Positions 5,977 to 53,715 are shown, numbered from the stretch's first letter. The stretch is DNA of 61,660 nt from Bacteroidota bacterium (GCA_947456185.1 CANGPW010000004.1:1-61660), one strand, 5' to 3'. Notes: generated from the sequence alone by a model not told the origin. Translations and numbers: made by a program.

Positions 5977-6048
5977 GATTGTTGAATTGTTAGATTGTTG
6001 AATTGATGAATTGATGAATTGATGAATTGATGAATTGATGAATTGATG
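5977..6048. repeat. 8-mer tandem repeat (AATTGATG x6 perfect plus 3 degenerate units)
   Basis: Read directly; no spacers between units. Confidence 0.95.
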
Positions 6049-6111
6049 AAAAAATAATAAATATACTTATTGCAAAAAAACTTTAACTTTATCTTTTTGG
6101 TAATTTTCAGG

Positions 6112-6148
6112 AAAAAAAAAGAGGAAAAAGCCAAAGCAATTTCCTCTT
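6112..6148 (-). terminator. Intrinsic terminator after M43 protease gene
   Basis: AAGAGGAAA...TTTCCTCTT stem with a 9-A run (U-tract on minus strand). Confidence 0.65.
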
Positions 6149-6165
6149 ATTGTTTATACTATTTT

Positions 6166-6193
6166 TTGTCAATTTCTTATTGCCAATTGCCAA
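6166..6193. repeat. 7-mer array (TTGCCAA-type x4) abutting the M43 stop codon
   Basis: ttgtcaa tttctta ttgccaa ttgccaa then tta (stop). Confidence 0.7.
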
Positions 6194-8041
6194 TTAATTC
6201 ACCATCCACTTGCTGGTAAATGTTTGTTCGTTTTGTTGTAATTTAATAACATAAATTCCTTTTGCAAATTCAGCTGAATTTAATTCAATATTATGTTCAC
6301 CGGTTGAATAGATATCGTTCGAAATATTTTTTACTAATTTACCCGTCATATCAAATAAATTTATGTTGATATTTGATTTAGAAACATTGGTAAATACTAA
6401 GTTTGAAATTCCATTAGTAGGATTTGGATTGATTGAAATATAAATTCCGTTATTTGCTTCATTTATTGCGTTAACAAACTCTCCAATTTGAATATTATCA
6501 ATATAAGTGTTATTTCCTCTGCGGGCTTGTAATTCAAAACGAACCCTGAAATTATTATATGTTTTATAATCGGTAAGATCTAAACTTAATTGTTTCCATT
6601 GATTACTTGTTGGAATAAAAGCTGAATCACTTTTTGCAGGAGCAGTTTCGATATCTGCAATTGTAAAAACTTTTGCCAAAACTTCTGTTCTTCCATAACT
6701 ATTAGAAACAAACATATTTATTTGGTCACTTGAACCACTTACCCTTTTAGCGTGTGCAATTTGAAAAGTTAAAGTTGGTTTGGTTAAATTAGTAATATCA
6801 ATATTACTTGTATGGAATTCATCACGAGTGTTCAAAATACTGTTGGCTCCATTATCGTAAGCATTAAAACGCATGCTTGTATTGTCTTTATAACCAACTT
6901 GGTTATTGGCTTTCCAACCATTGATAGGATTCATGAAATTTTCAATCTCAAAACGATTAACTTGTTCGTTAAAATCTATCAAAACTGGCGCTTTAATTAC
7001 TGCAGAAGTCAAAGGCTTATAAGTTCCATCAGCATTGATACCAGCTGCACTTAAATTAGCAGTTGAATATATATTGGCTCTATATGTGTTCATTAAACTT
7101 TTCATTCTTACAGATTGTCCAGCGGTATACATATCCATGCAAGTTCCATCAGCATAATCCATATAATTTTTAATATTATCAGCTAAATCTGGAACATCAT
7201 TTGAGCAAGAATTTTGAGAAGTAGGACACCCACTTGTAGAAACAGCCACTGGAGGAGTATCACAAACTTGATCACCTTGAGATGAACAATTACTTGAGGT
7301 TCCACCTACACATCCACCTTGAAAAGGATGATATAAACCACACCAATGGCCTGATTCATGGGTTACAGTTCTACCAGCTTGACCAGTTTGACCCAATCCA
7401 ATATTTCCAACTTGATCAGCTCTTACAATAATTCCATCAGTGGTAGGTCTTGAATTACGAGAATTAGGAAATTGTGCATATCCAAGTATAATAGAACCAG
7501 CAGGAGCGCTTGAGCTATTAATTATATTTACTACCCAAATATTAAAATATTTGTTACTATCCCAATAACTTAATTTTTTGGTGTTATCAGTTCCATCAAT
7601 TGTTTCAGTTGCATTATAGATTCTATTGACTCCATCAGTTGGATTTCCACTTGGGTCAATTTGAGCTAATCTGAATTCTATTTCGGCATCTACCGATTTG
7701 GTATCAGTGCTTGAACCACCATTAGTTCCAACTTTTTTTCTGAAATCTTCATTCATTACACGAATACAATCATTGATTTGAGCTTGAGTGATATTCTCTG
7801 ACGAATTTTTATGAATTATGTGAAAAACTACTGGAATATAAATTACTGTTCCTGCTTTAGCTAAACTAAATTTACTAGCATAATCACGGGCAATTTGATT
7901 ACCACGTTCTTCTTCTATTTTTAAAAGTGGATTTTCACGAACAGCCTTAACATACAATTCATCGGTAAAACATGGTATTACAGATTGGGCAAAACTTTGA
8001 AGTGAAAACAATAAAACTAATAAACTACAAACTTTCTTCAT
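6194..8041 (-). CDS. M43 (pappalysin/ulilysin-like) zinc metalloprotease with T9SS type-A CTD
   Basis: Signal peptide; IPVVFHII; HESGHWCGLYH zinc motif; CDTP; NYMDY Met-turn; CTD INPNP...GIYVIKL. Confidence 0.92.
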   Translation of the reverse strand: MKKVCSLLVLLFSLQSFAQSVIPCFTDELYVKAVRENPLLKIEEERGNQIARDYASKFSLAKAGTVIYIPVVFHIIHKNSSENITQAQINDCIRVMNEDFRKKVGTNGGSSTDTKSVDAEIEFRLAQIDPSGNPTDGVNRIYNATETIDGTDNTKKLSYWDSNKYFNIWVVNIINSSSAPAGSIILGYAQFPNSRNSRPTTDGIIVRADQVGNIGLGQTGQAGRTVTHESGHWCGLYHPFQGGCVGGTSSNCSSQGDQVCDTPPVAVSTSGCPTSQNSCSNDVPDLADNIKNYMDYADGTCMDMYTAGQSVRMKSLMNTYRANIYSTANLSAAGINADGTYKPLTSAVIKAPVLIDFNEQVNRFEIENFMNPINGWKANNQVGYKDNTSMRFNAYDNGANSILNTRDEFHTSNIDITNLTKPTLTFQIAHAKRVSGSSDQINMFVSNSYGRTEVLAKVFTIADIETAPAKSDSAFIPTSNQWKQLSLDLTDYKTYNNFRVRFELQARRGNNTYIDNIQIGEFVNAINEANNGIYISINPNPTNGISNLVFTNVSKSNININLFDMTGKLVKNISNDIYSTGEHNIELNSAEFAKGIYVIKLQQNEQTFTSKWMVN

Positions 8042-8131
8042 TTAAAAAATATTTAAGTTTACAAATAAAGTCCATTTTCGGAAAAATGTAAATAAACGTT
8101 TGTATGACTTATGTAAAATAAATTAGGTTTT

Positions 8132-8195
8132 TAAGTGTTGGAGAGTTTATGTGTTGGAGGGTTTAAGTTTTAAAGTGATGGAATGTTGATGTATT
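8132..8195. repeat. Degenerate 8-mer array with 16-mer higher order
   Basis: taagtgtt ggagagtt tatgtgtt ggagggtt taagtttt aaagtgat ggaatgtt. Confidence 0.65.
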
Positions 8196-8220
8196 TAGCA
8201 AATAGTAAGATGTTTCAAAT

Positions 8221-15069: not shown

Positions 15070-16455
15070 TTATTTTTCTAAAATTTCTTTGATAGGATTT
15101 ATCAATAAATCAATGTCTCCAGCACCCAATGTTAAAAATACTTTTGGCTGATTTTTTTTTACAGCTTCTAACAATTCATTTCTACTTACCAAATGTTTTT
15201 TTGAAGTAATTTTATCAAAAATTATTTTAGAAGTTATGCCTTCAATTGGTAATTCACGAGCTGGATAAATATCTAACAAAAATACTTCATTTGCTAATGA
15301 CAAACTTTCGGCAAATCCATCTACAAAATCACGTGTACGAGAAAACAAATGTGGTTGAAATGCCAATACAATTTCATTTGCAGGAAACATGTTTTTTACA
15401 GACGAAATAATAGCACGCAACTCTTCAGGATGGTGCGCATAATCGTCAATATAAATTTGATTTTCTTCTTTTATAATATATTCAAACCTACGCTTAACCC
15501 CTTTAAATCCATACAATGCGGAACGCAATTCGTTTTCAGTAACGCCACTTATTAAGCATGCTGCACATGCTGCTACAGCATTTTCCACATTATGTAATCC
15601 TGGAATTCCTAATTGCAAATTGTTAATTTCCGTTCCTTTATAAACTAAATCAAATGTATAATCGCCTTTGGTTATTAATATGTTTTTTGCATACACATCC
15701 GCTTCCGATTCTATGGAATAAGTAATGTAATTTACAGTAATATCATGGATTAAATCAAGTTCTTTTTTAATAATTAGTGTACCACCATTTACCAAACGAT
15801 TGGTATAATCTAAAAACGATTTTTTTAATTCGTTATGTTCACCATAAATATCCAAATGATCAGCATCTGTTGAAGTGATAATGGAAATTGTTGGATATAA
15901 AGTAAGAAACGATCTATCAAATTCATCGGCTTCTATCACCACAATTTGTTGATTGGTTGATTGGTTGATTGGTTGATTGGCTAATAATAAATTGGTATTA
16001 TAATTTGTAGAAATACCCCCTAAAAAAGCGCTACAATCAACTGAACTTTGTTTTAAAATATGAGCAATTAAAGTAGATGTGGTGGTTTTTCCATGTGTGC
16101 CAGCTACACCAATTGTTTGATGATTTTTACTTATTAAACCTAAAACTTGTGAACGTTTTAAAATTTCAAATCCGTTGTTTTTTAACCAAGCCCACTCTTG
16201 GTGGTTGGGAGGAATAGCGGGGGTTAAAACAACTAGTAAATTCGAATTATTAAATTCAAAATTCGAAACAGTATCGCCTAAATCTTCAAAGTGAATATCA
16301 ATTCCTTCTTTGATTAATTCATTGGTTAAAGAAGTAGGAGTTTTGTCGTAACCCATTACTTTAATTCCCAAATGGTTAAAATAGCGGGCAATGGCACTCA
16401 TGCCAATACCGCCAATGCCAAGAAAATAAGCTGTCTTTATATTTTTGATGTCCAT
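15070..16455 (-). CDS. murC: UDP-N-acetylmuramate--L-alanine ligase
   Basis: GIGGIGMS, AGTHGKTTT, EADEFDRSFL, DDYAHHP, FQPHLFSRT. Confidence 0.98.
   Translation of the reverse strand: MDIKNIKTAYFLGIGGIGMSAIARYFNHLGIKVMGYDKTPTSLTNELIKEGIDIHFEDLGDTVSNFEFNNSNLLVVLTPAIPPNHQEWAWLKNNGFEILKRSQVLGLISKNHQTIGVAGTHGKTTTSTLIAHILKQSSVDCSAFLGGISTNYNTNLLLANQPINQSTNQQIVVIEADEFDRSFLTLYPTISIITSTDADHLDIYGEHNELKKSFLDYTNRLVNGGTLIIKKELDLIHDITVNYITYSIESEADVYAKNILITKGDYTFDLVYKGTEINNLQLGIPGLHNVENAVAACAACLISGVTENELRSALYGFKGVKRRFEYIIKEENQIYIDDYAHHPEELRAIISSVKNMFPANEIVLAFQPHLFSRTRDFVDGFAESLSLANEVFLLDIYPARELPIEGITSKIIFDKITSKKHLVSRNELLEAVKKNQPKVFLTLGAGDIDLLINPIKEILEK
15949..15980. repeat. Four perfect TTGATTGG copies inside murC
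   Basis: Encodes (A)NQPINQSTNQQ just before VVIEADE. Confidence 0.95.
16239..16266. repeat. Degenerate 7-mer array inside murC
   Basis: aattcga attatta aattcaa aattcga; encodes SNFEFNNSN. Confidence 0.6.
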
Positions 16456-16458: not shown

Positions 16459-17550
16459 TTATTTCATCAATTTTATTACTTCATCTACAATTAACTCAGC
16501 CGCATTTGGTAGGGCAAAATTGCTAATGTTTTTTACTAAATCTACTTGTTTATTTGAATCGTTTATTAAGTTTAACGTTTCAGTTATCAAGTTATTTTTA
16601 GCATCTATGTCTTTTACTAAAATAGCTGCATTTACATTTACCAAAGCCATCGCATTTTTTGTCTGATGGTCTTCTGCTACATTTGGCGAAGGCACTAAAA
16701 TGATAGGTTTGGCCACTTGAGCTAATTCGGCAATTGACAATGCTCCGGCTCTTGAAATTACTACATCGGCTGCTGCATAAGCTAAGTCCATCTCGTAAAT
16801 AAAATGTTGGACGTTGAATGTTGGATGTTGGATTTTATTAGCTTTATCAAAGTTTTTACCCGTTTGCCAAATCAAGTTAATATTTGCTTCTTTTAATTGA
16901 TCAAACCCATCAAAAATACTTTCATTGATGGTTCTTGCACCTAAACTCCCCCCTATTACTAAAACAGTTTTTTTAGCTGAGTCCAATTTAAAAAAATCAA
17001 TGGCTTCGTTTCTTTTACTAGAAACATCCATCAAATCTTGTCGTATTGGATTTCCAGTTTTTACCAACTTATTTGCTGGAAAAAACTTTTCCATGTGATC
17101 ATATGCCACACAAATTTTATTGACTTTATCTTTTAATATTTTATTTGTTATACCCGCATACGAATTTTGTTCATGAATTAAAGTTGGAAGTTTTTTTAAT
17201 GAAGCTGCATAAAGCACCGCACTACTTGCATAACCTCCAAAACCAATCACAACATCTGGTTTGAATTTATTGATTATTCCAAATGATTTAATAATACTTG
17301 AAATTACTTTTATAGGAAATAATAAATTTTTATAAGTTATTCTGCGTTGCAAACCGCTAATCCATAAGCCAACAATTTTAAAACCAGCCTTAGGAACTTT
17401 CTCCATTTCCATTCTATCGCTAGCACCAACAAATAAAAATTCTACTTCATTATTCAACCTTTTTTGTAAAGCTTGTGCAACCGCAATAGCTGGATAAATA
17501 TGTCCGCCAGTACCGCCTGCGCTTATAATAACTTTCTTTTTAGTTTTCAT
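16459..17550 (-). CDS. murG: Lipid II GlcNAc transferase MurG
   Basis: GGTGGHIYP, HEQNS, TGNPIR, GGSLGA, SRAGA, EDHQTKNA. Confidence 0.98.
   Translation of the reverse strand: MKTKKKVIISAGGTGGHIYPAIAVAQALQKRLNNEVEFLFVGASDRMEMEKVPKAGFKIVGLWISGLQRRITYKNLLFPIKVISSIIKSFGIINKFKPDVVIGFGGYASSAVLYAASLKKLPTLIHEQNSYAGITNKILKDKVNKICVAYDHMEKFFPANKLVKTGNPIRQDLMDVSSKRNEAIDFFKLDSAKKTVLVIGGSLGARTINESIFDGFDQLKEANINLIWQTGKNFDKANKIQHPTFNVQHFIYEMDLAYAAADVVISRAGALSIAELAQVAKPIILVPSPNVAEDHQTKNAMALVNVNAAILVKDIDAKNNLITETLNLINDSNKQVDLVKNISNFALPNAAELIVDEVIKLMK
16804..16831. repeat. 7-mer array (ATGTTGG x4, one variant) inside murG
   Basis: atgttgg acgttga atgttgg atgttgg; encodes IQHPTFNVQH. Confidence 0.8.
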
Positions 17551-20282: not shown

Positions 20283-20293
20283 TTTTTAGATTA

Positions 20294-20375
20294 TAGTACT
20301 TAGTTTTTAGTACTTAGTTATTGTTTGTTACTGTTTAAATAAATCACAATTCAAAAATCCTAAATCAAAAATCAG
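20294..20375. repeat. Two different 7-mer arrays in the mraY-murD spacer
   Basis: TAGTACT/TAGTTTT x4 (20294-321) and AAATCAA-type x5 (20341-375). Confidence 0.8.
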
Positions 20376-25729: not shown

Positions 25730-26629
25730 TTATAATCGTTCGGCAACTCTTAATTTTGCACTTCGCGACCTGTTATTTTCTTCTTGTTCTTTATCGGTGG
25801 CCACAGCTGCTTTTTTGTTCAATGGATTAAATGGACGATTGATATTTCCAAAGAAATCTTTTTCTAATTCACCCATTAAATTACCGCTGTTCATGTAGTT
25901 TTTTACCAATCTATCTTCTAACGAATGGTAACTCATGAACACCAGTCTTCCTTTTGGTTTCAGCAAACTGTCACATTGCAAAAGCATTTTTTCTAATACA
26001 TCTAACTCTTGGTTCACTTCTATTCTGATGGCTTGAAAAACTTGCGCATAAAACTTAAAGTCTTTAAACTTTGGCGCTGAACTTTTCAAAGCATCTTTTA
26101 ATTCACCTACAGTTTCAATGTCTTTTCCGGTGCGTGCCGCAATAATTTCGGCTGCTAATTTGCGCGATTGGTGCAACTCGCCATACTTATAAAATACATT
26201 TGCCAAAGCATCTGCTTTGTATTCATTAATTACTTTATGCGCACTTAATCGCTGACTTTGGCTCATGCGCATATCTAAAACTGCATCATCAAAACGAATA
26301 GAAAAACCGCGTTCTCCAATGTCAAATTGATGAGAAGAAACACCTAAATCGGCCAATAAACCATCTACTTTATCAAAGCCTTGGTATTGTACATGATTTT
26401 TCAAAAACTCAAAATTTTGATCTATAAAAATCAAACGATCATCCTTTATCAAATTACGTTTTGCATCTTCATCTTGATCAAAAGCTATCAATCTTCCTTT
26501 TTTACTTAACCTATCTAAAATAGCTTTACTATGTCCACCTCCACCATAAGTTACATCCACATAAATACCATCAGGATTGATGTTTAATCCTTCAAGGCAT
26601 TCGTTTAACATGACTGGGTTGTGGTACAT
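25730..26629 (-). CDS. rsmH: 16S rRNA m4C1402 methyltransferase
   Basis: HNPVML, DVTYGGGGH, DLGVSSHQ, FQAIRIEVN, SYHSLEDR, RSRSAKLR. Confidence 0.98.
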   Translation of the reverse strand: MYHNPVMLNECLEGLNINPDGIYVDVTYGGGGHSKAILDRLSKKGRLIAFDQDEDAKRNLIKDDRLIFIDQNFEFLKNHVQYQGFDKVDGLLADLGVSSHQFDIGERGFSIRFDDAVLDMRMSQSQRLSAHKVINEYKADALANVFYKYGELHQSRKLAAEIIAARTGKDIETVGELKDALKSSAPKFKDFKFYAQVFQAIRIEVNQELDVLEKMLLQCDSLLKPKGRLVFMSYHSLEDRLVKNYMNSGNLMGELEKDFFGNINRPFNPLNKKAAVATDKEQEENNRSRSAKLRVAERL

Positions 26630-26631
26630 TT

Positions 26632-26688
26632 TAGTTGATAGTTGTTAGTTTTTAGTTTCTTAGTTTTTAGTACTTAGTACTTAGTTGC
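26632..26688. repeat. 7-mer array TAGTNNN x8 immediately upstream of the rsmH start
   Basis: tagttga tagttgt tagtttt tagtttct tagtttt tagtact tagtact tagttgc. Confidence 0.85.
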
Positions 26689-26726: not shown

Positions 26727-26747
26727 CCGTTGGCTAAAGCCAAACGG
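26727..26747. repeat. REP-like hairpin
   Basis: CCGTTGGCT-AA-AGCCAAACGG. Confidence 0.5.
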
Positions 26748-26775
26748 CTATTCATCTTTTGCTCATTGCACATGC

Positions 26776-26793
26776 CTCCCGATGCATCGGGAG
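26776..26793. repeat. Perfect 18-bp palindrome embedded in a GCNCATT 7-mer array
   Basis: CTCCCGATGCATCGGGAG is its own reverse complement. Confidence 0.85.
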
Positions 26794-26801
26794 CACATTG
26801 C

Positions 26802-27263
26802 CTATTGCTCATTGTTACTCCTTTTGCTCATTACTTCTTCGGCTAAAGCACTAAAGTCTTCTGGTTCGGCATTCAGCATGGTTTCATACTCTGTTTTACT
26901 CCATATTTCTACTTTATTGCCGTAGGCTAACAAAACAATTTCGCCTTTTAAGTTTGCATACTCTTGTAATGGTTTTGGTAATAAAACACGACTTGCAGTA
27001 TCCATGTCTAATTTACTTGCACCACGCAAAAAGTAGCGTTTAAATTCTCTTTCCTTTTTTATATAATCACTTAGTTTATTTATTTCTCCTGCTATGTTAT
27101 CCCATTCGTTTGCGGGATACATGACACAGCATTTTTCAAAACCACGATTGATAAAAAAAGAATCCTTAGCCTCCACAGGAAGTTGCTTTTTCAATGCTGC
27201 AGGAATTATCAACCTGCCTTTAGCATCTATTTTACATTCATATTCTCCGTGTAGGTTTATCAT
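26802..27263 (-). CDS. mraZ: Division/cell-wall cluster transcriptional regulator MraZ
   Basis: IDAKGRLIIP, DTASRVLLP, VEIWS; first gene of dcw. Confidence 0.96.
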   Translation of the reverse strand: MINLHGEYECKIDAKGRLIIPAALKKQLPVEAKDSFFINRGFEKCCVMYPANEWDNIAGEINKLSDYIKKEREFKRYFLRGASKLDMDTASRVLLPKPLQEYANLKGEIVLLAYGNKVEIWSKTEYETMLNAEPEDFSALAEEVMSKRSNNEQ

Positions 27264-27439: not shown

Positions 27440-27676
27440 AAAACCACTTTAAAATCTTGATATTGGAAATAAACCTCGTTTTTGGAATTTAAAATTGGTT
27501 TATGGAGCTAAAAATACACGTTAAAAAACAGTATTTTTAACGAATAATTTTTTGTGCTTTTTTATAAATAATTGGAAAGGTTTTTCGAAAAAAAATTCTA
27601 GAAAAAAAACTAACAATTAGACCTAATATGTTTTTAAATTTTTAATTTTTTACGAAAATATTAATAAATACATCTT

Positions 27677-27684
27677 TACATTTG
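27677..27684 (+). promoter_or_regulatory. Bacteroidota sigma70 -7 element
   Basis: TACATTTG = TAnnTTTG, 25 nt before ATG 27710. Confidence 0.6.
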
Positions 27685-27709
27685 CTGTAGTATTTGAATA
27701 AAAATATTT

Positions 27710-28954
27710 ATGAAAACTAAAATTACTATCAGCATTTTGTTCATAGCTATAAGCCTTGGATTATTTGCACAAAGTTTAACCGTTAGTCCAAACAAAGCCT
27801 CGGCTGGTCAAACATTTGCGGTTACTATTTCAGGAAAAAACACCGCATTTTTAACGGGTATAAACACCATTGATTTTGTATATAATAGTGCTATTACAAA
27901 AGATGCTATTTTTTCAAATCAAAATGTAGTGAATGATTCTTTGATTTCAGGTACGATATCTATTTCAAGTACAATTCCTAACCCTTATTATTTTTCTTTA
28001 CGTATTTCAAATACCATAAACCCACCAATTAATTTATTAAGCGGCATATCAATTCCAGATGCTGATACCATTATTCCAAGATTATATTCAACAGATAATT
28101 CTAGAGGATTTAATATTGGGCAATCCAATTATTTAAGAATACGTGGCAAAAACACTCACTTAACAACTACCAAAAACAATATTATAAAGTTTTATAAATA
28201 CGGAATTGAAAGTAAAAGTATCAGCATTTCCAATATTAGAGTTTATTCATCTCCATATCCTTATGAATTATGGATTGATTTAATTGTTGATATAAAATCT
28301 AAACTTGGCTTTTATTCAATGAGCGTTGAAAACGAAATTGATGGCATCGTTTTTAAAGATAGCATTTTTGAAGTATTAAATCCATATCCAATGCTTATCA
28401 ATTCAATTGATAATAGATACGCAAAAAGAAATGAGATGAAAGATGTTTATATGGCTGGTTCGCAATACGCTAAATTTTTAACCAATCCTCCAACCATTTT
28501 ATTTACAAAAAATAATACAGTTTCAAAAGAAATTGAAGTTGTAAGTATTACTGCACAAAATGATTTAAACGCAACGGTTCGATTAAATGTAAAACCAACT
28601 GCTGAATTGGGAATATATACTATTGCTTATTTTTATCCTGCAGATTTAGATACCATGTTTTTAAAAAATTATTTTATAATTGGTGCGGCTGCGGGAACCA
28701 ATGAAACAAATGAAATTCAAACTAAGATATTCCCTAATCCTGCTAAAAACTTAATGAATATTGAAAGTAAAAATGATATTACAAGCCTTCAAATTTTTGA
28801 TATAATGGGCAAAGAAATTTTGAGTAAAATACCAGAAAAGTTAACCCAAAACCTACAAATTAATCTTTCAGAAATACTGATTCCAAAAGGAATTTACTTT
28901 ATAAAAATTCAAAGTTTGGAAGGTTTTATTACACAGAAATTAATTATTGAATAA
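27710..28954 (+). CDS. T9SS type-A substrate with about three Ig/IPT-like beta repeats
   Basis: Signal peptide; repeats VTISGKNTAF / LRIRGKNTHL; CTD IFPNPAK...GIYFIKI...KLIIE. Confidence 0.8.
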   Translation: MKTKITISILFIAISLGLFAQSLTVSPNKASAGQTFAVTISGKNTAFLTGINTIDFVYNSAITKDAIFSNQNVVNDSLISGTISISSTIPNPYYFSLRISNTINPPINLLSGISIPDADTIIPRLYSTDNSRGFNIGQSNYLRIRGKNTHLTTTKNNIIKFYKYGIESKSISISNIRVYSSPYPYELWIDLIVDIKSKLGFYSMSVENEIDGIVFKDSIFEVLNPYPMLINSIDNRYAKRNEMKDVYMAGSQYAKFLTNPPTILFTKNNTVSKEIEVVSITAQNDLNATVRLNVKPTAELGIYTIAYFYPADLDTMFLKNYFIIGAAAGTNETNEIQTKIFPNPAKNLMNIESKNDITSLQIFDIMGKEILSKIPEKLTQNLQINLSEILIPKGIYFIKIQSLEGFITQKLIIE

Positions 28955-28965
28955 CTACAGACAAT

Positions 28966-29093: not shown

Positions 29094-29993
29094 ATGACGA
29101 TTAAAGTAACTAATTTATCAAAAATATATGGCAGCCAAAAAGCCCTAGACAGCATTAGTTTTGAAGCGCATAAAGGCGAAATACTAGGTTTTTTAGGACC
29201 AAATGGTGCGGGAAAATCTACTACCATGAAAATTCTAACGGGCTATATTCCTGCTACTAGCGGACAAGCTTTTATCAATGGAATTGAAATTAACGAAAAC
29301 AGCATCGCCATTAGAAAAGAAGTAGGTTATTTACCTGAATTGAATCCACTTTACACCGACATGTATGTAAAAGAGTTTTTACTTTTTATAGCCAATAGTT
29401 ATGGAATTACCACAGGAGCTAACCAAGCTGCTGAAGAAATGATTTCCAAAACAGGTTTGAGCTTGGAACGCAAAAAGAAAATTAGTCAGTTAAGCAAAGG
29501 TTACAAACAACGTGTTGGCTTAGCAGCAGCCATGATTCACAACCCAAGTGTATTGATTTTAGATGAACCAACCAGTGGTTTAGATCCAAATCAAGTAAGT
29601 GAAATAAGAAATTTAATTAAGGAAATTGGCAAAAATAAAACAGTAATACTTTCGAGTCATATTATGCAAGAAGTTGAAGCCATGTGCGATAGAGTAATTA
29701 TTATCAATCGAGGTAAAATAGTGGCAGATGATAAAATTGAAAAACTGCAACAATCGTTTAGCAAAGAATATTTGATTTCGGTTCAATTTAAAAATAGTCC
29801 AACTATTGAAAGTATCAAAGCCATTGACAAAAACATAAAAGTATTGGCTACTAAAGATGGTTTTACCATTAATGCAAAAGAAGATATTAGAGAAAAAATT
29901 GCACAAAAAGCTGCTGAAAATAATTGGTTAATTTTAAGTATGAATTTGGAAGAAAGCTCGTTGGAACAAGTGTTTCAGAGTTTAACTAAATAG
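29094..29993 (+). CDS. gldA: Gliding-motility ABC transporter ATPase GldA
   Basis: GPNGAGKS, LSKGYKQRVG, LDEPTSGLDPNQ, SSHIMQEV; upstream of gldF/gldG. Confidence 0.88.
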   Translation: MTIKVTNLSKIYGSQKALDSISFEAHKGEILGFLGPNGAGKSTTMKILTGYIPATSGQAFINGIEINENSIAIRKEVGYLPELNPLYTDMYVKEFLLFIANSYGITTGANQAAEEMISKTGLSLERKKKISQLSKGYKQRVGLAAAMIHNPSVLILDEPTSGLDPNQVSEIRNLIKEIGKNKTVILSSHIMQEVEAMCDRVIIINRGKIVADDKIEKLQQSFSKEYLISVQFKNSPTIESIKAIDKNIKVLATKDGFTINAKEDIREKIAQKAAENNWLILSMNLEESSLEQVFQSLTK

Positions 29994-30077
29994 GCAATAG
30001 GCAATAGAAAATTGGCAAAAGGCAAATAATAAAATGTTTTAAAAAACTGAGTACTGAAAACTATGTACTAAAAACTA
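29991..30077. repeat. Two 7-mer arrays in the gldA-gldF spacer
   Basis: TAGGCAA-type x5 starting at the gldA stop (29991-30025); AAAACTA/AGTACTG x5 (30043-77). Confidence 0.85.
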
Positions 30078-30083
30078 AAAAAA

Positions 30084-37622: not shown

Positions 37623-37761
37623 ATCTGTGAAATAGTTTTTGCGAATATATATTTTTATAAGTTACTTTAATAAACACCAATAAAAATCAATTGTTTTGAG
37701 AAATAAAAAAGAAAAGATGGATACGAATGTTACTTGATTTGTTAAACCTATAAAATTAATT

Positions 37762-37797
37762 CATTCCGCATTTTGTCATTCCGCAATTCGCATTTTA
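37762..37797. repeat. 7-mer array (CATTCCG-type x5) just after the lipoprotein stop
   Basis: cattccg cattttg (t) cattccg caattcg catttta. Confidence 0.7.
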
Positions 37798-37804: not shown

Positions 37805-39043
37805 TTACTCCAAATCAGTGTTCAACTTGTACCTACAAATTCTGTTATTGCCTTTATCGGCTACATAAATCATTTTGCGGTTATAGCAAATTCCCATTGG
37901 ATCTAAAAAATTAAATGGACCATCAAGTGGTTTTCCATCTATTGCTTTTCCTCCAAATGATACATTTATTTGCTTTTTTATGGTGGAATTTGCTGGAGGA
38001 TTTACCCCTTCAAAGCCTTGGTTAGTAAATACATAAACTGAATCAGTTTCACTGTCAACTACAAAAAAGTAATTGGTAGCATCAGGCGCTATGAAACAAT
38101 CTTCAGGTTTTTTGAATTTAAAAGGTTCATACATAAAGCTGCTGGCTTTGCCAATATCAAAATTTAACAAACTAGCAGTTTCTGAATATTGAGGACCTAA
38201 ATCTGGATCATCAATAACTGTTATCATTAAAGTTTTATACTCTAAATTATTGGTTTGATTATTTGAAGTAATCATAAAGTTTTTTGAAGTACTCATTCCT
38301 TGCAAACGTTGAGGTGGTGCTGAAAAGGTAGCTATACTAGAAATATCTACAGCAGTTTTTAATCCGGATTCAGTTGGATTTAATCCAACTCCATATCCAA
38401 TATTTAATCCATCTTGGTTAAAAACCAACACAGCATTATCAGGTCTAACAAAAGTATTTGCTTGGTTTCTTGGACCTTTGCGAGTAACATACAAAGTATT
38501 GTCTGACAAACATGCCAAACCAGTATACGTTACTTCTAAATCTGCAGCACCTCTAAACTGAGTACTTTGACGCGAAGCATCACAAAATGGATGAATTAAA
38601 GTATCAATAAATGTGTAGTTTCCTTGACCTGTTCCTTCTAAATGATACACGCAAGTTACAGTTTCATTAACTGTTGCATCAAAAACTTTTCCAATTACAT
38701 AAGTATGCAAACGCCTGTCTTGTGTAACTTCAGTAGCTCCCGGAATAGCTATAGTATAAGCCAAAGTTCCTTTTTGATCTAAAATATTTAAACCTTTATC
38801 ATCTACCACATAAATCATTTCATCGAAACCAACGAACACATCTACTGGATTTTGAAAACCTTTAAAAAACGGAAAAATTGGCACGTAACTTACCGCTTTT
38901 GGAACTAAGTTTGGATCTATTTGTCCTTGCTTTAACACATCATCTACGGTATCATTTTGCTTGCTTCCAAATATGGAACACGAAGAAAAGAAACCAATCA
39001 TTGACATAAATAAAACGATTATTTTTATATTTTTAAGATTCAT
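37805..39043 (-). CDS. Lipoprotein with NHL-like beta-propeller
   Basis: Lipobox FFSS-C; FQNPVDVFVG..IYVVD, FKKPEDCFI..FFVVD, FLDPMGI..IYVADKGNNRI. Confidence 0.75.
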   Translation of the reverse strand: MNLKNIKIIVLFMSMIGFFSSCSIFGSKQNDTVDDVLKQGQIDPNLVPKAVSYVPIFPFFKGFQNPVDVFVGFDEMIYVVDDKGLNILDQKGTLAYTIAIPGATEVTQDRRLHTYVIGKVFDATVNETVTCVYHLEGTGQGNYTFIDTLIHPFCDASRQSTQFRGAADLEVTYTGLACLSDNTLYVTRKGPRNQANTFVRPDNAVLVFNQDGLNIGYGVGLNPTESGLKTAVDISSIATFSAPPQRLQGMSTSKNFMITSNNQTNNLEYKTLMITVIDDPDLGPQYSETASLLNFDIGKASSFMYEPFKFKKPEDCFIAPDATNYFFVVDSETDSVYVFTNQGFEGVNPPANSTIKKQINVSFGGKAIDGKPLDGPFNFLDPMGICYNRKMIYVADKGNNRICRYKLNTDLE

Positions 39044-39052: not shown

Positions 39053-40060
39053 TTATTTAATGGTAAATAATAAACCTATTCTGTGAATATTTCCTATTCG
39101 TGATTTGCTTATTAGGCCATAATCTATACCAAAATTCCCAAAGCTGCGAGGTAATTTTACCCCAAAACCTAAAGTAGGAAAATTATTATCTTCATCTAAT
39201 CCAAACTCCCAACCAGTGCGCGCAAATAATATTTTCTTCCAACTATATTCTAAAGCCGAAGCTAAAGTTTCGTTATTATCAGTTGGGTGATTTAATTGCG
39301 CAGCAATAGTTAAAATATTAGTGCCATCGCATATGGGATCAATGGCAAAACCTAATCTAAAAATTGCTGGAGCAGAAACAGGAGTAAAATCGCTTTTAGC
39401 ACTTTCATTGTTCATTTTTAAAATGGTAACATCGCCTGTTGGCGCCACATTTAAACCAAAATTAGTAAATGTAACTCCAAATCTTGCATTTTTTATTCCA
39501 ATATTATAAGTCAGTCCTAAATCAAATAACATATTATTTACAGATACATTTGCTATGACTTCTTGAGCAAATTTGGCTTGCAATCCAAAACTAAAATTAT
39601 TGGTTAATATTTTTGCAAAAGATATACCTATAGATGTGCTGCCCATTAAAACATTTCGGCCAGTACCGTTTGGTTCAAATTCGGTTGTTTCTTTGTTATC
39701 GCCAAAACCCAAACTAATTACATTAACTCCAACATAACTTAATTTACCAGCTTTAAAAGCTACTGCTCCATAATTTACTTGGCTATTTCCAAACCAACGA
39801 GTATTTGAAAATTGGGCAGTAACTTTTCCTGTATCAATACTGGTAATTCCCGCAGGATTCCAATACATTGCAGAAGCATCGTTTACTAATCCAACCACTG
39901 CACCACTCATAGCTGCTGAACGTGCATCGGGTGCAATTTTTAAAAACTGCATACCACTTCCACCTGTACGACTATTGCCAAAAGTAGGCAATATTTGAGC
40001 TTGCGCAATAGAAATTGCAACAAGAAATAGGTATAAAAGTATTATTTTAAACTTCATCAT
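39053..40060 (-). CDS. PorV/PorQ (UPF0164)-family outer-membrane beta-barrel
   Basis: Signal peptide; QFLKIAPDARSAAMS, DASAMYWNPAG, FDLGLTY, IHRIGL. Confidence 0.8.
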   Translation of the reverse strand: MMKFKIILLYLFLVAISIAQAQILPTFGNSRTGGSGMQFLKIAPDARSAAMSGAVVGLVNDASAMYWNPAGITSIDTGKVTAQFSNTRWFGNSQVNYGAVAFKAGKLSYVGVNVISLGFGDNKETTEFEPNGTGRNVLMGSTSIGISFAKILTNNFSFGLQAKFAQEVIANVSVNNMLFDLGLTYNIGIKNARFGVTFTNFGLNVAPTGDVTILKMNNESAKSDFTPVSAPAIFRLGFAIDPICDGTNILTIAAQLNHPTDNNETLASALEYSWKKILFARTGWEFGLDEDNNFPTLGFGVKLPRSFGNFGIDYGLISKSRIGNIHRIGLLFTIK

Positions 40061-40128
40061 TTTTATAAAAGCTTCGCAAAATAAACAATATTTTATAATC
40101 TATAAGTTATTTGTTTGTAAAGAGGTTT

Positions 40129-40281
40129 ATGGACGATAGACCATGGATGATGGACGAACATTAATTTTGGGGAGTGAAACAAACTTCATCCAATTATTAC
40201 CTTTTAATATTTCAAACAAAAAAAGGTCAGCTTTCGCCAACCTTTTCCATTAAAAACTATCGTCTATAGTCCATTTACTAT
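40129..40281. repeat. Oppositely oriented 7-mer arrays flanking a terminator
   Basis: ATGGACG-type x4 (40129-56) and CGTCTAT/AGTCCAT-type x4 (40254-81). Confidence 0.8.
40218..40246 (-). terminator. Intrinsic terminator after nfu
   Basis: Minus strand AAAAGGTTGGC-GAAA-GCTGACCTTTTTTT. Confidence 0.75.
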
Positions 40282-46628: not shown

Positions 46629-46675
46629 GATTGAAAGATTTAGGGATTTTTGATTGAAAGATTGAAAGATTACAA
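46629..46675. repeat. 8-mer array (GATTGAAA-type x6) just upstream of the RluA start
   Basis: gattgaaa gatttagg gattttt gattgaaa gattgaaa gattacaa. Confidence 0.8.
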
Positions 46676-46736
46676 AAATTAAAAGATAACAAAGTTGGAA
46701 TTGCTTTTTTTGTTATTGACCATATACAAGTTGCCT

Positions 46737-46760
46737 CCTTCGACTCCGCTCAGGATGACA
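46737..46760. repeat. REP-like unit
   Basis: CCTTCGACTCCGCTCAGGATGACA; related to 4158-78 and 32547-66. Confidence 0.7.
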
Positions 46761-46780
46761 ACGTGAGCTTTCAGCATTTT

Positions 46781-46816
46781 ACTTCGCAATTTTGTCACTT
46801 CGAACTTCGCACTTTT
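46781..46816. repeat. 7-mer array (ACTTCGC-type) abutting the panB stop
   Basis: acttcgc aattttg tc acttcga acttcgc actttt. Confidence 0.65.
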
Positions 46817-50765: not shown

Positions 50766-50785
50766 TCAATAGTTTTATTAAGTAT

Positions 50786-50931: not shown

Positions 50932-51168
50932 ATGACCATTACCGCGCTCAAAAAAGAACTTTATAAAACAATAGATGCTATTGAAGACAATGCTATCTTG
51001 GAGGCTGTTTACACCATTTTAAAACCAAAAAGTGTAACAAAAAAAGTGATGGTTCCAATGAGCAAAACAGAATTTTTAAATAGAAATGCAGCATCTCAAA
51101 AAGACATAGAAAACGGAAACTTAATTAGTCATAAAGCTTTAAAAAAGCAATTTGCTAAAACAAAGTGA
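50932..51168 (+). CDS. Putative antitoxin
   Basis: 78 aa; C-terminal SQKDIENGNLISH addiction-module-like motif; 4-nt GTGA overlap with toxin; TATATTTG at 50908-15. Confidence 0.7.
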   Translation: MTITALKKELYKTIDAIEDNAILEAVYTILKPKSVTKKVMVPMSKTEFLNRNAASQKDIENGNLISHKALKKQFAKTK

Positions 51169-51488: not shown

Positions 51489-51554
51489 GGTTTAAAAAAA
51501 CTTCTATAATAAAAGCCAATCGTAAACTTATCTTTGTTGTTTAACAAAACATCC

Positions 51555-52697
51555 ATGTCATTTAATTCCCTCGGTTTATCTCGCGATTTATTATATGCTT
51601 TAGAAAAGCAATTTTATACCCAACCATACCCTATTCAAGAACAAGCAATTCCTGAAATTTTAAAAGGGAATGATATTCTTGGAATAGCTCAAACAGGATC
51701 AGGAAAAACAGCCAGTTTTGTAGTGCCTATTTTACAGTTATTGCAAAGCAAACCAATTCCTAAAAATAGACATATTAATACGCTGGTGCTTGTTCCTACA
51801 AGAGAATTAGCCATTCAAGTTGAAAAAGTTTTTAAGGCATTTAGTAGTTTAATGGAACAAAAAATTAAATCGTTAGCGGTTTATGGTGGCGTGTCTATTA
51901 ATCCTCAAATGATACAATTACAAGGTGTAGAAATATTAGTGGCCACACCAGGCAGATTATTAGAATTAGTAGCTAACAATTCAGTATTTTTAACTGATGT
52001 TTCAGTTTTGGTTTTAGACGAAGCAGATAAAATGTTAAATCTAGGTTTTAAAGAAGAAATGGGAAATATTTTAAAATTACTTCCTAAAAAGCGCCAAAAC
52101 CTTTTATTTTCTGCCACCTTAGGAAGTGATATTACTTCATTTACCGATGTACTTTTAAATAACCCTGTAAAAATTGTAATAGAACAAGAATCCCAAAACT
52201 TAGATTTAATTACTCAATTAGCTTATTCAGTGGAAGAAAATAGAAAAGGTCCATTATTGCGATATTTAATAAACACGCATGAAATGAAACAAGTATTGGT
52301 TTTTACGTCATCAGTATTTAGGTCAGATGCGGTGGTTAATAAACTAATTGATAACGGCTATACAGCAACAGCAATGCACAGTAAAAAAAGCCAAGGAGGA
52401 AGAGAAGATGCCTTACGTAAATTTAAAAATGGTGAAGTACAAATTTTAGTAGCCACCGATTTAATGAGCCGAGGTATTGATATTCCTTTTTTGCCTTTTG
52501 TTATAAACTATGAATTACCCCGATCACCAAAGGATTATATTCATAGGATAGGAAGAACTGGAAGAGCTGAAAACGCGGGAACTGCTATTAGTTTAGTGAA
52601 TGAAGAAGAAAAGCATCATTTTGGAGTAATACAAAAAAAGATGAAGAAACAAGTAGCATTGATTCCTTCAGATGAAATTGACCTGAAAGGTTATTAA
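51555..52697 (+). CDS. DEAD-box RNA helicase (RhlE-like)
   Basis: Q motif, AQTGSGKT, PTRELA, TPGRL, DEAD, SAT, HRIGRTGRA; start MSFNS, TATCTTTG at 51529-36. Confidence 0.95.
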   Translation: MSFNSLGLSRDLLYALEKQFYTQPYPIQEQAIPEILKGNDILGIAQTGSGKTASFVVPILQLLQSKPIPKNRHINTLVLVPTRELAIQVEKVFKAFSSLMEQKIKSLAVYGGVSINPQMIQLQGVEILVATPGRLLELVANNSVFLTDVSVLVLDEADKMLNLGFKEEMGNILKLLPKKRQNLLFSATLGSDITSFTDVLLNNPVKIVIEQESQNLDLITQLAYSVEENRKGPLLRYLINTHEMKQVLVFTSSVFRSDAVVNKLIDNGYTATAMHSKKSQGGREDALRKFKNGEVQILVATDLMSRGIDIPFLPFVINYELPRSPKDYIHRIGRTGRAENAGTAISLVNEEEKHHFGVIQKKMKKQVALIPSDEIDLKGY

Positions 52698-52699
52698 AC

Positions 52700-52736
52700 A
52701 AAAAAACGGCAAGTAAAATATATTACTTGCCGTTTT
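52700..52736. terminator. Bidirectional terminator between helicase and atpG
   Basis: AAAACGGCAAGTAA-AATATA-TTACTTGCCGTTTT. Confidence 0.85.
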
Positions 52737-52759
52737 ATTATATTATTATTGTATAAAAA

Positions 52760-53641
52760 CTAAGAACTTAAAGCCGCTGCACCACCAACAATTTCTGAAA
52801 TTTCAGTGGTAATGGCTGCTTGACGAACTCGGTTATATTCTACTTTTAATGATTTTAATAATTCACCAGCATTATCAGTAGCTTTGTCCATTGCAATCAT
52901 CCTTGCACCATGTTCTGAAGCTAAAGAATCTAACATTGATTTTAAAACTTGTGTTTTTAAAATTCTAGGTATTAATTCCAATAATATTTCTTCTTTGTTT
53001 GGTTCAAACAAATAGTCATTTTTTACACCTGAATTTGCAGTTAAACTAGTTGTATCAATTGGTAAGAATTGCTCTGCACTTAAAATTTGTGTAGCGGCAT
53101 TTTTAAACTGATTATAAACTATTTCTACAGCGTCAAATTTTCCTGCTTTAAAATTACTCAAAATGTATTCACCAATGGCAAATCCAGTTTCAGCATTTGC
53201 GGTAAGCAATGATTCTTTGAAATTATCAATGTAATTTACTGGTTGTTTTGAGAAATATTCATGGCCTTTTTTACCAATTCCCATTACACTGATTCCGCCA
53301 TTAGCTTTTTGAGTTGGGTATTTGTCTGCAATGGTTTTGTTTGCCATTTTTATTACATTGGCATTAAACGAACCACACAAACCTCTATCGCTAGTAATTA
53401 CTACTATTAATACATTTTTTATTGGCCTAGCATCAAAATATACTTTTAATGAATCAACATCAATGCTATCAGACAAATTGCTTAAAATACCATTTAACTT
53501 AGCTGCATAAGGGCGCATTAAGGTAATGGCATTTTGGGCTCTTCTTAACTTAGTAGCCGAAACCAATTTCATGGCTTTGGTTATCTGTTGTGTGGAAGTA
53601 ACCGATGCTATTCTTATTCTAACTTCTTTTAAATTTGCCAT
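52760..53641 (-). CDS. atpG: F1 ATP synthase gamma subunit
   Basis: QITKAMKLVS, SDRGLCGSFN, SEHGARMIAMDKATDNA, RQAAITTEISEIVGG. Confidence 0.98.
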   Translation of the reverse strand: MANLKEVRIRIASVTSTQQITKAMKLVSATKLRRAQNAITLMRPYAAKLNGILSNLSDSIDVDSLKVYFDARPIKNVLIVVITSDRGLCGSFNANVIKMANKTIADKYPTQKANGGISVMGIGKKGHEYFSKQPVNYIDNFKESLLTANAETGFAIGEYILSNFKAGKFDAVEIVYNQFKNAATQILSAEQFLPIDTTSLTANSGVKNDYLFEPNKEEILLELIPRILKTQVLKSMLDSLASEHGARMIAMDKATDNAGELLKSLKVEYNRVRQAAITTEISEIVGGAAALSS

Positions 53642-53644
53642 TTT

Positions 53645-53715
53645 TCAATTAGGTGATTGGTTAATAAGTTGATTGGTTAATAAAGTAAAAACCTATTAAC
53701 AAATCAACCTATCAA
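53645..53715. repeat. Head-to-head 8-mer arrays (TTGATTGG-type) in the atpA-atpG spacer
   Basis: tcaattag gtgattgg ttaataag ttgattgg ttaataaa ... cctattaa caaatcaa cctatcaa. Confidence 0.8.

Follow-up and report, generated by a model that had tools for sequence, protein, structure and literature searches.

Introduction

Several tandem families of heptanucleotide repeats, the STRR sequences, are dispersed in the intergenic DNA of heterocystous cyanobacteria such as Calothrix, where they have no known function, and they differ in phylum and in repeat unit from the arrays described here. Reports of heptamer repeats in bacterial genomes go back to at least 2007, when the unit size was proposed to match the polymerase footprint (Mrazek et al., 2007, as cited in Rehm et al., 2015, PMC4692102). 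The G-rich heptamers GGGAATC of Xanthomonas and GGGGAYT of Nostoc PCC 7120 are intergenic and over-represented, with the G-rich strand being sense within 50 bp after stop codons, which the repeats often overlap, and antisense within 50 bp before start codons; they are rare between divergent genes, about four units are preferred and their length varies among relatives (Rehm et al., 2015). TAACTGA and other heptamer direct repeats have been described in Beggiatoaceae, cyanobacteria and five Bacteroidetes, with other heptamers in spacers of Gramella, Aequorivita and Elizabethkingia; contigs frequently end within the repeats, and binding proteins of the S1, cold-shock or CsrA type have been proposed (MacGregor, 2015, PMC4679880).

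The 23S rRNA of Coxiella burnetii contains an intervening sequence (IVS) with an ORF for S23p, a PF05635 protein (Warrier et al., 2016, PMC4990558). Terminal inverted repeats enclose the ORF and form a long stem, with three tandem heptamers, variable among strains, between the RNase III site of the stem and the ORF start. The element is viewed as selfish and the protein is probably not made in Coxiella, while the introduction of the same paper describes homopentameric rings formed by these proteins in Xanthomonas (Warrier et al., 2016).

In a window of 61,660 nt from a lake Bacteroidota bacterium (GCA_947456185.1), short arrays of 7- or 8-nt units lie at gene boundaries with a marked polarity, which an earlier note had regarded as the best candidate for an undescribed system. 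The polarity rule was in fact published in 2015 (Rehm et al., 2015), and the arrays belong to this known class of heptamer/octamer microsatellites, here AT-rich and with many unit families. Period 7, intergenic excess, scarcity in coding and divergent DNA, polarity and variation in length among relatives are common to both, while the present arrays comprise dozens of AT-rich families whose units contain one or two G but never a G-tract and also favour period 8; the sections of Rehm et al. (2015) on the repeats draw no link to PF05635. The repeats of MacGregor (2015) resemble the present ones as tandem heptamers, mostly intergenic and just 5' of starts in one orientation, whose placement is restricted by forward-frame stop codons; in contrast, that account, in its repeat sections, deals with one unit in which G and C both occur, and with neither a stop-side class nor a cassette. 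Like the Coxiella IVS, the cassettes discussed below hold a PF05635 gene within paired inverted arms containing tandem heptamers, but the IVS lies inside an rRNA gene, whereas the cassettes here lie between protein-coding genes and most arrays are free of any ORF; the RNase III-cut stem is a feature described for the IVS (Warrier et al., 2016).

Arrays in the window

Arrays were located by TRF (period 7 or 8), to which shorter degenerate runs of two to four units were added by reading of the sequence (8130-8168, 26760-26805, 37724-37783, 40097-40156, 40257-40274, 46751-46810 and 53642-53689). All arrays that had been reported at gene boundaries were recovered in this way, the one given as ATAGACG beside nfu, however, as three imperfect units only:

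5974..6050, minus strand: 8-nt array upstream of iPGM, sense unit CATCAATT, 9 copies, G 0 and C 18, 43 nt 5' of the iPGM start (gene 4369-5934); TRF
6179..6195, minus strand: TTGGCAA, 2.4 copies, touching the M43 peptidase stop (gene 6194-8041); TRF
8130..8168, minus strand: period-16 array of two 8-mers, sense unit CTCTCCAACACTTAAA, 2.4 copies, C-type, about 90 nt 5' of the M43 start
20283..20319, minus strand: AAAAACT/AGTACTA, 5.3 copies, C-type, touching the murD start; TRF
20341..20374, minus strand: TTGATTT, 4.9 copies, G 7 and C 0, 4 nt 3' of the mraY-type stop; TRF
26629..26686, minus strand: ACTAAAA/AGTACTA, 8.1 copies, C-type, touching the rsmH start; TRF
26760..26805, minus strand: degenerate AATGAGC/AATAGGC/AATGTGC run at the mraZ stop; read by eye
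29989..30025, plus strand: AATAGGC, 5.3 copies, G 9 and C 4, overlapping the gldA-type (ABC ATPase) stop; TRF
30042..30081, plus strand: AAAAACT/GAGTACT, 5.7 copies, 2 nt 5' of the gldF-type start; TRF
37724..37783, minus strand: degenerate TGCGGAA-type 7-mers, G-type, 3' of the stop of gene 37805-39043
40097..40156, minus strand: CGTCCAT/CATCCAT/GGTCTAT/CGTCCAT, C-type, 40-70 nt 5' of the start of gene 39053-40060
40257..40274, minus strand: ATGGACT ATAGACG ATAG, G-type, 3' of the nifU-like stop
46652..46694, minus strand: TTTCAATC, 4.4 copies, C-type, at the rluA-type start; TRF
46751..46810, minus strand: GCGAAGT/TCGAAGT, three degenerate units, G-type, 3' of the panB stop
53642..53689, minus strand: AACCAATC-type 8-mers, 4 copies, C-type, 5' of the atpG start, forming the 3' arm of a hairpin
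53690..53716, minus strand: TTGATAGG, 3.4 copies, G 8 and C 0, 3' of the atpA stop; 5' arm of the hairpin; TRF

For the iPGM and rluA-type arrays TRF itself gave the slightly narrower spans 5978-6050 and 46652-46687. The units at 40257..40274 are the reverse complement of the family at 40097-40156. The neighbours of the window arrays are housekeeping genes, for example those of the dcw and atp clusters and panB. Most of the gene names given before agree with Pfam matches (iPGM, M43, MurD, MraY-type GT4, RsmH, MraZ, NifU, RluA-type, PanB, AtpG and AtpA), while gldA and gldF match only as ABC ATPase and ABC-2 permease, and the Pfam search gave no match for the proteins called 'propeller lipoprotein' and 'PorV-like'.

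Abundance and polarity across the genome

With a gene set of 2159 genes from ORF calls made in this analysis, about 280 arrays occur in the 2.6 Mb genome, and the 281 assigned to their nearest gene end comprise 153 at stops and 128 at starts. When intergenic arrays of at least 2.8 copies are set against the average count in 10 dinucleotide-shuffled controls, period 7 is enriched ten-fold (108 versus 10.4), period 8 is enriched 3.5-fold (45 versus 12.7), and periods 14 (17 versus 1.0) and 16 (11 versus 0.5) exceed the shuffles as well, whereas periods 5, 6 and 9-12 are no commoner than in shuffled DNA. Period-7 arrays number 117 in 275 kb of intergenic DNA versus 41 in 2.34 Mb of coding DNA. 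Arrays are present in 198 of 1448 spacers (13.7%), namely 27/288 divergent, 130/916 co-directional and 41/244 convergent ones. The dozens of unit families are AT-rich, and copy number has a median of 4.3, with a plateau at 3-4.5 copies (20-34 nt) and then a drop, the low end being cut by the TRF score threshold. Phase-variation SSRs, which switch surface or restriction genes from their promoter or 5' coding region, do not account for arrays that are more frequent at stops than at starts and that flank housekeeping genes in the window.

On both DNA strands alike, the array on the 5' side of a spacer contains G and little C, and the one on its 3' side contains C and little G. When the polarity noted in the window was examined by a genome-wide repeat scan with the G/C skew of the sense strand, G exceeded C in 92 of 111 arrays within 30 nt of a stop and C exceeded G in 62 of 72 arrays before a start (Fisher odds ratio 30, p 3e-21). 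On the stop side, the ratio of G>C to C>G arrays is most extreme in convergent spacers (34:4) and amounts to 56:15 in co-directional ones, whose start side has 5:49; in divergent spacers it is 5:11; arrays swallowed by the 5' ends of ORFs are also mostly C-type among those listed. The polarity far exceeds unbiased slippage, as had been argued from the window, and also local base composition.

Base composition is rejected as the cause because non-repeat DNA 3' of stops contains G and C equally (10.0% versus 10.5%), non-repeat DNA within 20 nt 5' of starts being mildly G-poor (6-8% G versus 12% C). Promoter elements are rejected for the stop side, as convergent spacers are the most polar on that side, and an ORF-calling artefact because neighbouring arrays on the plus strand, paired independently of gene calls, are ordered G-then-C in 29 cases and C-then-G in 1. 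Stop-side arrays contain 21% G, with G runs absent; since the AT-rich units lack G-tracts, quadruplex folding cannot be the point here, and as AT-rich units, period-8 arrays and every spacer type obey the polarity, G-quadruplexes are not needed for the rule.

Attachment to gene ends, turnover and folding

Throughout the genus, most arrays remain at the end of the gene to which they belong, although their units drift. An array with an ACTA core lies 5' of gldF in 12 of 15 relatives, regardless of the upstream gene, and the 8-mer family at the rluA start is kept in five of the six relatives compared, with or without an inserted upstream gene of 310 aa. Units change quickly between relatives that are 94% identical, and array copy number differs between two of the genomes, G006 and G007. 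The array at the rsmH start has insertions of whole units in other samples, and between natural populations two of the nine indels listed are whole-unit changes, +14 nt at 26666 and, in the gldA-type stop array, one unit (+7 nt) at 30009 (DNA contig, run X3); a third indel, from an RNA-library contig (+8 nt at 26631), does not correspond to a full unit of the period-7 array there. Contigs of two RNA libraries span the mraZ|rsmH spacer, but give neither strand nor ends, with DNA carry-over possible, and those that end near the murD|mraY spacer carry no meaning by their ends.

Half of the stop-side arrays (76/153) abut the stop within 3 nt, and these contain stop codons in all three frames in 45/76 cases on the sense strand versus 12/76 on the opposite strand; TAG is the stop of 41/78 array-abutted genes versus 425/2085 genome-wide. 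Start-side arrays are free of ATG, GTG and TTG in 58/78 cases in sense versus 23/78 in antisense, and short spacers are filled by arrays right up to the stop or start.

Of the four spacers in the window that carry an array at each end, atpA|atpG has two arms that pair (-24.4 kcal/mol, z -3.7), whereas the arrays of gldA|gldF, mraY|murD and mraZ|rsmH do not (z -0.3 to -0.7). Genome-wide, five of the 29 G-then-C pairs are specifically complementary with z below -2, and eight have z below -1. When all 126 array spacers of 50-250 nt were folded alongside 170 sampled array-free spacers, the median z was -1.48 with one array, -0.72 with two or more and -1.04 without arrays, so that hairpins are rejected as a general property, there being no excess of structure. 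REP/BIME or MITE-type palindromes are likewise rejected, as the units stand in direct tandem order, belong to many families and add no structure to their spacers, and so is base pairing of a gene's 5' array with its own 3' array, since only eight genes carry both, three of them PF05635 genes.

PF05635 cassettes

The earlier note linked similar arrays to four-helix-bundle and GxxExxY genes of Bacteroidota, and this genome and its genus bear out the association. The genome has eight PF05635 matches and a single PDDEXK_3 match, none of them on the contig of the window. Flanking 7/8-nt arrays accompany six of the eight PF05635 genes, and 10 of 15 spacers flanking such genes carry arrays versus 198/1448 overall (p 3.5e-6). 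The arm families are those of the window arrays, and those of resident cassettes are the commonest among solo arrays; one cassette folds with its arms as the terminal stem. The leader of a PF05635 gene is its own G-type arm, so leaders do not always avoid G. More than 95% of arrays lack a neighbouring cassette.

The cassettes occupy about eight conserved slots, for example within the pntAA|pntAB|pntB operon, and the slots are polymorphic among genomes 94% identical. At one slot the content is a PF05635 gene in G000, G007 and G002 and a PDDEXK_3 gene of the GxxExxY type in G003 and G006, and this slot is empty in G010; the occupants of the C8 and C5 slots vary among relatives between distinct PF05635 genes, a GxxExxY-type gene and no gene at all. 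The C70 slot is filled in G000 alone among the relatives compared, its gene lying between two AAAACTA arrays in direct order as if inserted into an array, and C62, the only informative slot that is empty in G000 and filled in six relatives, holds an array in G000. Where alleles differ, the arms follow the protein cluster rather than the slot, and arm families stay conserved with their own gene across the genus. None of 11 multi-member protein clusters was found in two mapped slots, which rejects hopping between spacers and gives no sign of a recent spread that would have seeded some 200 spacers.

The proposal that the arrays are flanks or landing pads of a mobile cassette applies to the array-flanked, polymorphic PF05635 slots; with so few slots and no cluster shared between two of them, the roughly 200 array spacers are not established as landing pads or recent relics. 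Extra genes do lie between the arrays in relatives, in the gldA|gldF, rluA|panB and nfu|PorV-like spacers, but none is PF05635 or GxxExxY; cargo is absent from 21 dcw spacers and from 17 of 18 atpA|atpG spacers compared as orthologues, and neither type of gene occurs in the orthologous window spacers examined (21 dcw, 15 gldA|gldF, 17 atpA|atpG, 6 rluA|panB and 6 nfu|PorV-like). Synthesis of the arrays by a reverse transcriptase with an Avd-like partner is rejected, the 94%-complete genome having no RVT_1 match.

Among PF05635 loci from many phyla, 49 of 74 have arrays within 200 nt, mostly of period 7 (27) or 8 (29), with G>C to C>G ratios of 34:1 upstream and C>G to G>C ratios of 29:3 downstream. 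The typical arm has about 4.5 units, and 18 arm pairs have a duplex energy of -38.2 kcal/mol versus -13.9 when permuted. The window arrays share this design: 5' G-type, 3' C-type, period 7-8 and about 4-5 units. In GC-rich phyla 8 of 37 G-arms lack any stop codon, so the supply of stop codons is not a general argument. In 12 related genomes of other genera, of which 26-100 kb each were sampled, array density follows PF05635 matches per Mb (Spearman 0.88, p 1.7e-4), and the polarity there is 12:0 at stops and 0:5 at starts. Arrays are only at chance density in two genomes that have 4 and 6 PF05635 matches, and G019, G023 and G030 have no arrays in the 51-100 kb sampled, their intergenic fractions being similar.

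Discussion

We put forward, with confidence a little short of even, an account that combines the known microsatellite class, the cassette-arm design and a polarity of harmless orientation. The arrays are heptamer/octamer microsatellites as in Xanthomonas, Nostoc, Beggiatoaceae and a few Bacteroidetes, each of about 3-6 units on a gene boundary, and they gain and lose whole units as replication slippage would predict. Their design is that of the paired arms of small cassettes with a PF05635 four-helix-bundle or sometimes a PD-(D/E)XK gene, arms whose predicted pairing gives a long stem that encloses the gene, comparable to the RNase III-cut IVS stem of 23S rRNA. Cargo-bearing arms, cargo-free arms such as the atpA|atpG hairpin and single arrays would then form one class of element, whose polarity may have been kept as the only orientation harmless to the flanking genes: at a stop it would supply a stop-codon-rich tract, and at a start it would leave a G-poor, unstructured leader free of start codons before a start that has no Shine-Dalgarno sequence.

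A simpler reading, which we consider rather unlikely, is that the arrays are pure microsatellites, heptamer slippage being intrinsically favoured and arising anywhere in neutral spacer DNA, with selection on translation signals alone orienting them and PF05635 cassettes merely sharing permissive spacers. The whole-unit indels in populations, the rapid turnover of units between close relatives, the filling of short spacers, the predicted difference in start- and stop-codon content, the distance of most arrays from cassettes and the lack of excess structure all speak for it; yet it leaves unexplained the trend of density with PF05635 copy number, including the array-free samples of three genomes, the G-to-C arm order in GC-rich phyla that use Shine-Dalgarno sequences, the conservation of arm families with their gene, and why period 8 is favoured but 6 and 9 are not. 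The loss of a mobile mini-cassette from the window spacers, whose landing pads or leftover flanks the arrays would be, has the slot polymorphism on its side, as well as the C70 gene between direct-order arrays, the array in the empty C62 slot and the likeness of the atpA|atpG pair to a cargo-free cassette stem, but we give it the least credence, as neither a PF05635 nor a GxxExxY gene lies in the orthologous window spacers examined, the match between cassette protein clusters and slots is one-to-one and arrays stay with a conserved gene end whatever the neighbour.

The copy-number trend can also be read as arrays being cis-acting sites of PF05635 proteins, each paralogue reading its own family at its own gene and at other gene ends in a post-transcriptional or processing network, which seems improbable. 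It would fit the commonness of resident arm families among solo arrays, the tracking of protein cluster rather than slot, and the agreement between arms of about 4.5 units, a median of 4.3 copies here and the preference for four reported for heptamers (Rehm et al., 2015), although the low end of the copy-number histogram is cut by the detection threshold and chance alone would bring common families into arms. Further, G- and C-type arrays are reverse complements, so that a binder of single-stranded RNA could not read both, dozens of unit families face only eight paralogues, and S23p is probably not made in Coxiella (Warrier et al., 2016). A slightly more doubtful extension is that the bacterial heptamer repeats are putative working sites of ring-shaped PF05635 paralogues, each reading about five 7-8-nt units of its own family; the gene of each would be wrapped in such units, the same units at many host gene ends would direct RNA processing or the coupling of neighbouring genes, and the G-then-C order would be part of the mechanism rather than a by-product of selection.

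This genome provides a dense and clean example of the class of bacterial heptamer repeats. The arrays are also of practical concern, as they break assemblies, mislead the calling of start codons and provide the stop codons of many genes. The tie of the class to PF05635 becomes quantitative, with an arm design in many phyla, slot polymorphism in close relatives and an array density that follows gene copy number.

Polarised arrays at gene ends

The metagenome-assembled genome (2.61 Mb, 127 contigs, 31% GC, the window being contig C4), near-identical DNA of which is present in lake-water runs, was searched as a whole with TRF, with 2159 genes called by a simple codon-usage ORF caller. Its 271 kb of intergenic DNA hold 108 arrays of period 7 compared with 10.4 (maximum 12) in dinucleotide shuffles and 45 of period 8 compared with 12.7, with a further excess at periods 14 (17 vs. 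1.0) and 16 (11 vs. 0.5) and no excess over the shuffles at periods 5, 6 and 9-12. Genome-wide, arrays of period 7 or 8 number 352, of which 272 have their midpoint outside genes. As many contigs end in or beside long arrays (C2:3-232, C16:316-412, C108:5493-5714, C94:7670-7838, C76:10696-10797, C77:10446-10502 and C55:16648-17452), assembly probably breaks at the arrays, and the genome probably contains more of them than counted here.

The earlier note had described polarised arrays at the gene boundaries of the window, which holds as first written. TRF and reading of the spacers by eye recover the places it named, the former with period-7/8 arrays at nine gene boundaries, the latter with seven further, shorter and degenerate runs; on the sense strand all stop-adjacent arrays contain G and all start-adjacent arrays contain C, as scored partly by eye, and several arrays consist of only two to four imperfect units. 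Most of the gene names used in that note are backed by Pfam, which supports gldA only as an ABC ATPase and gldF only as an ABC-2 permease and gives no match for the 'propeller lipoprotein' and 'PorV-like' proteins.

The genome-wide scoring of G/C skew by gene end that the note had proposed reveals a bias of strand and position. Among arrays at most 30 nt from a gene end, those after stops have more G than C on the sense strand (G-type) in 92 cases vs. 19, and those before starts more C than G (C-type) in 62 vs. 10, a contrast with an odds ratio of 30 (p = 3e-21). By spacer type, the polarity counts are 34:4 in convergent spacers, 56:15 on the stop side and 5:49 on the start side of co-directional spacers, and 5:11 in divergent spacers; since the polarity is kept in all three, promoter motifs cannot account for the stop side and were ruled out as its source. 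Non-repeat DNA has no G/C skew after stops and a mild G-poverty before starts. The order of adjacent arrays, a test independent of gene calls, agrees with the gene-end test: on the plus strand, 58 pairs include 29 G-then-C, 1 C-then-G, 15 C-C and 5 G-G (p = 6e-8). The simplest statement is a spacer-centred rule: whichever strand is read, a G-type array stands at the 5' side of the spacer and a C-type array at the 3' side.

Called ORFs have 63 arrays well within them, 34 with more C than G and 25 with more G than C on the sense strand. Two clean C-type arrays with no in-frame stops on the sense strand lie within ORFs of essential genes in the window, CAACCAAT (x4.6, 15944-15980) in the murC-type and CCAACAT (x4.3, 16804-16833) in the murG-type ORF. 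Upstream of the atp genes, the small ORF at 56452-56661 contains a perfect 21-nt direct repeat of 1.9 copies (56604-56643).

Relation to PF05635 cassettes

The genome encodes eight PF05635 four-helix-bundle genes and one GxxExxY (PDDEXK_3) gene, with no gene of either kind in the window; such a gene between two arrays, its arms, is referred to as a cassette. Arrays of this kind had been placed around four-helix-bundle and GxxExxY genes of Bacteroidota in the earlier note, and this holds here, with 7/8-nt arrays in the flanking spacers of 6/8 PF05635 genes and in 10 of 15 distinct PF05635-flanking spacers vs. 198 of 1448 overall (p = 3.5e-6). Cassette slots are polymorphic in comparison with five close relatives, the slot on C70 being filled in this genome only. 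Among the genomes compared, the C5 slot is either empty or occupied by a PF05635 or a PDDEXK_3 gene, and two slots in the pntAA/pntAB/pntB operon hold different PF05635 genes or none. At this apparent transhydrogenase operon (C8:41800-46300, genes named by eye) one PF05635 cassette sits in each spacer.

Arms differ by cassette allele, each allele carrying its own. The arm families AGTTGTC/CAACTAT, AATTGGC/TTATTGC, TAGTTT/AAAACTA-AGTACTA, AAGTATG/TTCATAC and AACCAATC-type 8-mers are also those common among solo arrays, window arrays included, and in the predicted fold of one cassette the two arms form a terminal stem of about 25 bp around the ORF. In 17 genomes of the genus, cassettes occupy about eight conserved slots, with one slot per protein cluster and a conserved arm family, which looks like long residence and allele replacement rather than hopping. 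One slot with PF05635 in seven relatives corresponds to the C7/C12 contig break in this genome, beside its only GxxExxY gene.

Beyond the genus, 74 loci from many phyla encoding relatives of one of these PF05635 proteins were collected, and 49 of them have arrays (period 6-9, 14 or 16) at most 200 nt from the ORF, predominantly of period 7 (27) and 8 (29). On the sense strand of the ORF, upstream arms are G>C in a ratio of 34:1 and downstream arms C>G in 29:3, and 18 arm pairs are strongly complementary (-38.2 kcal/mol vs. -13.9 permuted). In 12 other genera of the class, with 26-100 kb sampled per genome, period-7/8 arrays become denser as PF05635 hits per Mb increase (Spearman 0.88, p = 1.7e-4), which is a lead short of proof, given that the genomes are related and the samples small; the same polarity is present in these samples (12:0 and 0:5). 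In another genus (G029:C9:7562-7867), a PF05635 gene lies between dcw murE and mraY matches on the opposite strand.

Persistence of the window arrays

The apparent long residence of cassettes in few slots, the G-type leader of PF05635 genes, and the spacer contents and pairing described next weigh against a simple cassette account. Among the orthologous copies of window spacers examined, some relatives do have extra genes, and none of these is a PF05635 or GxxExxY gene: they comprise a YhcG-type nuclease gene and, as judged by eye, lipoprotein-like ORFs and a toxin-antitoxin-like pair. The latter, encoding 89 and 122 aa and hicA/hicB-like by eye, occupies the nfu/PorV-like slot of the relative G005 (C15:192360-194760) next to a 215-aa lipoprotein-like gene, of which other relatives carry one to three copies. 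Specific complementarity is confined to 5 of 29 G-then-C pairs, array spacers show no excess of structure over other spacers in a folding comparison, and in the window only the atpA/atpG array pair forms a hairpin. At about six intergenic sites, a small, dispersed hairpin element adjoins heptamer arrays, and parts of it match numerous contigs from relatives:

Window 26727-26770: CCGTTGGCTA, variable loop, AACGGC, then attcatcttttg
Also at C12:31299, C23:25666, C27:271, C28:17196 and C78:10279

The arrays of natural populations differ by whole units, as in a DNA contig from another sample that has 14 extra nt at 26666 and 7 extra nt at 30009. Where flanks share about 94% identity, the spacer between them may be nearly unchanged (G010), differ in array copy number (G006 vs. 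G007) or carry quite different units with unchanged polarity. An ACTA-core array directly precedes gldF in 12 of 15 relatives whichever of three genes lies upstream (gldA, one for a YhcG-type nuclease or one encoding 130 aa), the 8-mer family leading rluA is kept with and without a 310-aa gene inserted upstream, and the atpA/atpG spacer is co-linear, with its length within 10 nt, in 17 of 18 genomes of the genus. A 1354-nt stretch of the window (27609-28962), containing a gene (27710-28954) whose product carries a type IX secretion sorting tail, is replaced by CTATCA in a DNA contig from another lake sample (X3).

Arrays in relation to coding signals and possible causes of the polarity

Among 153 stop-side arrays, 76 overlap the stop or begin at most 3 nt from it; 45 of these 76 have stops in all three sense frames vs. 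12 on the other strand, and TAG terminates 41 of 78 array-abutted genes vs. 425 of 2085 genome-wide (p = 3e-10). The stop codon is often supplied by the array. In the gene upstream of the C70 slot, the final ~25 nt differ from those of four close relatives, as does the spacer. On the start side, 58 of 78 arrays are free of ATG, GTG and TTG in the sense direction vs. 23 of 78 in the antisense direction. The PF05635 genes themselves reverse the rule seen at host genes, as their leader is a G-type arm.

The polarity might have arisen because the arm gives the cassette ORF a Shine-Dalgarno sequence, in line with a motif of this type in 17 of 37 upstream arms vs. 2 of 37 in reverse. Other possible causes are avoidance of exposed C-rich RNA and a putative protein reading the array units. 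We prefer to infer that G-then-C is the sole orientation fitting both the stops at one end and the starts, which lack Shine-Dalgarno sequences, at the other.

Relation to known repeats

According to Rehm et al. (2015; PMC4692102), the G-rich strand of the Xanthomonas GGGAATC and Nostoc GGGGAYT heptamers, with about four units and mostly transcribed, is sense up to 50 bp downstream of stops, which it often overlaps, and antisense up to 50 bp upstream of starts; the placement rule found here is the same. Oriented TAACTGA repeats and other heptamers in spacers of Gramella, Aequorivita and Elizabethkingia figure in MacGregor (2015; PMC4679880), and in the S23p intervening sequence of Coxiella, strain-variable tandem heptamers at the stem cut by RNase III were described by Warrier et al. 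(2016; PMC4990558). A full-text literature search found no paper linking heptamer repeats in general to PF05635.

The proposal that the arrays are flanks or landing pads of a small mobile cassette is partly supported, as arrays and PF05635 cassette arms are alike in design, unit families and cross-genome abundance, but the window arrays behave as long-lived gene-end attachments and not as empty landing pads. The pattern is real and strong, yet the arrays are an AT-rich, many-family addition to a published class of repeats.
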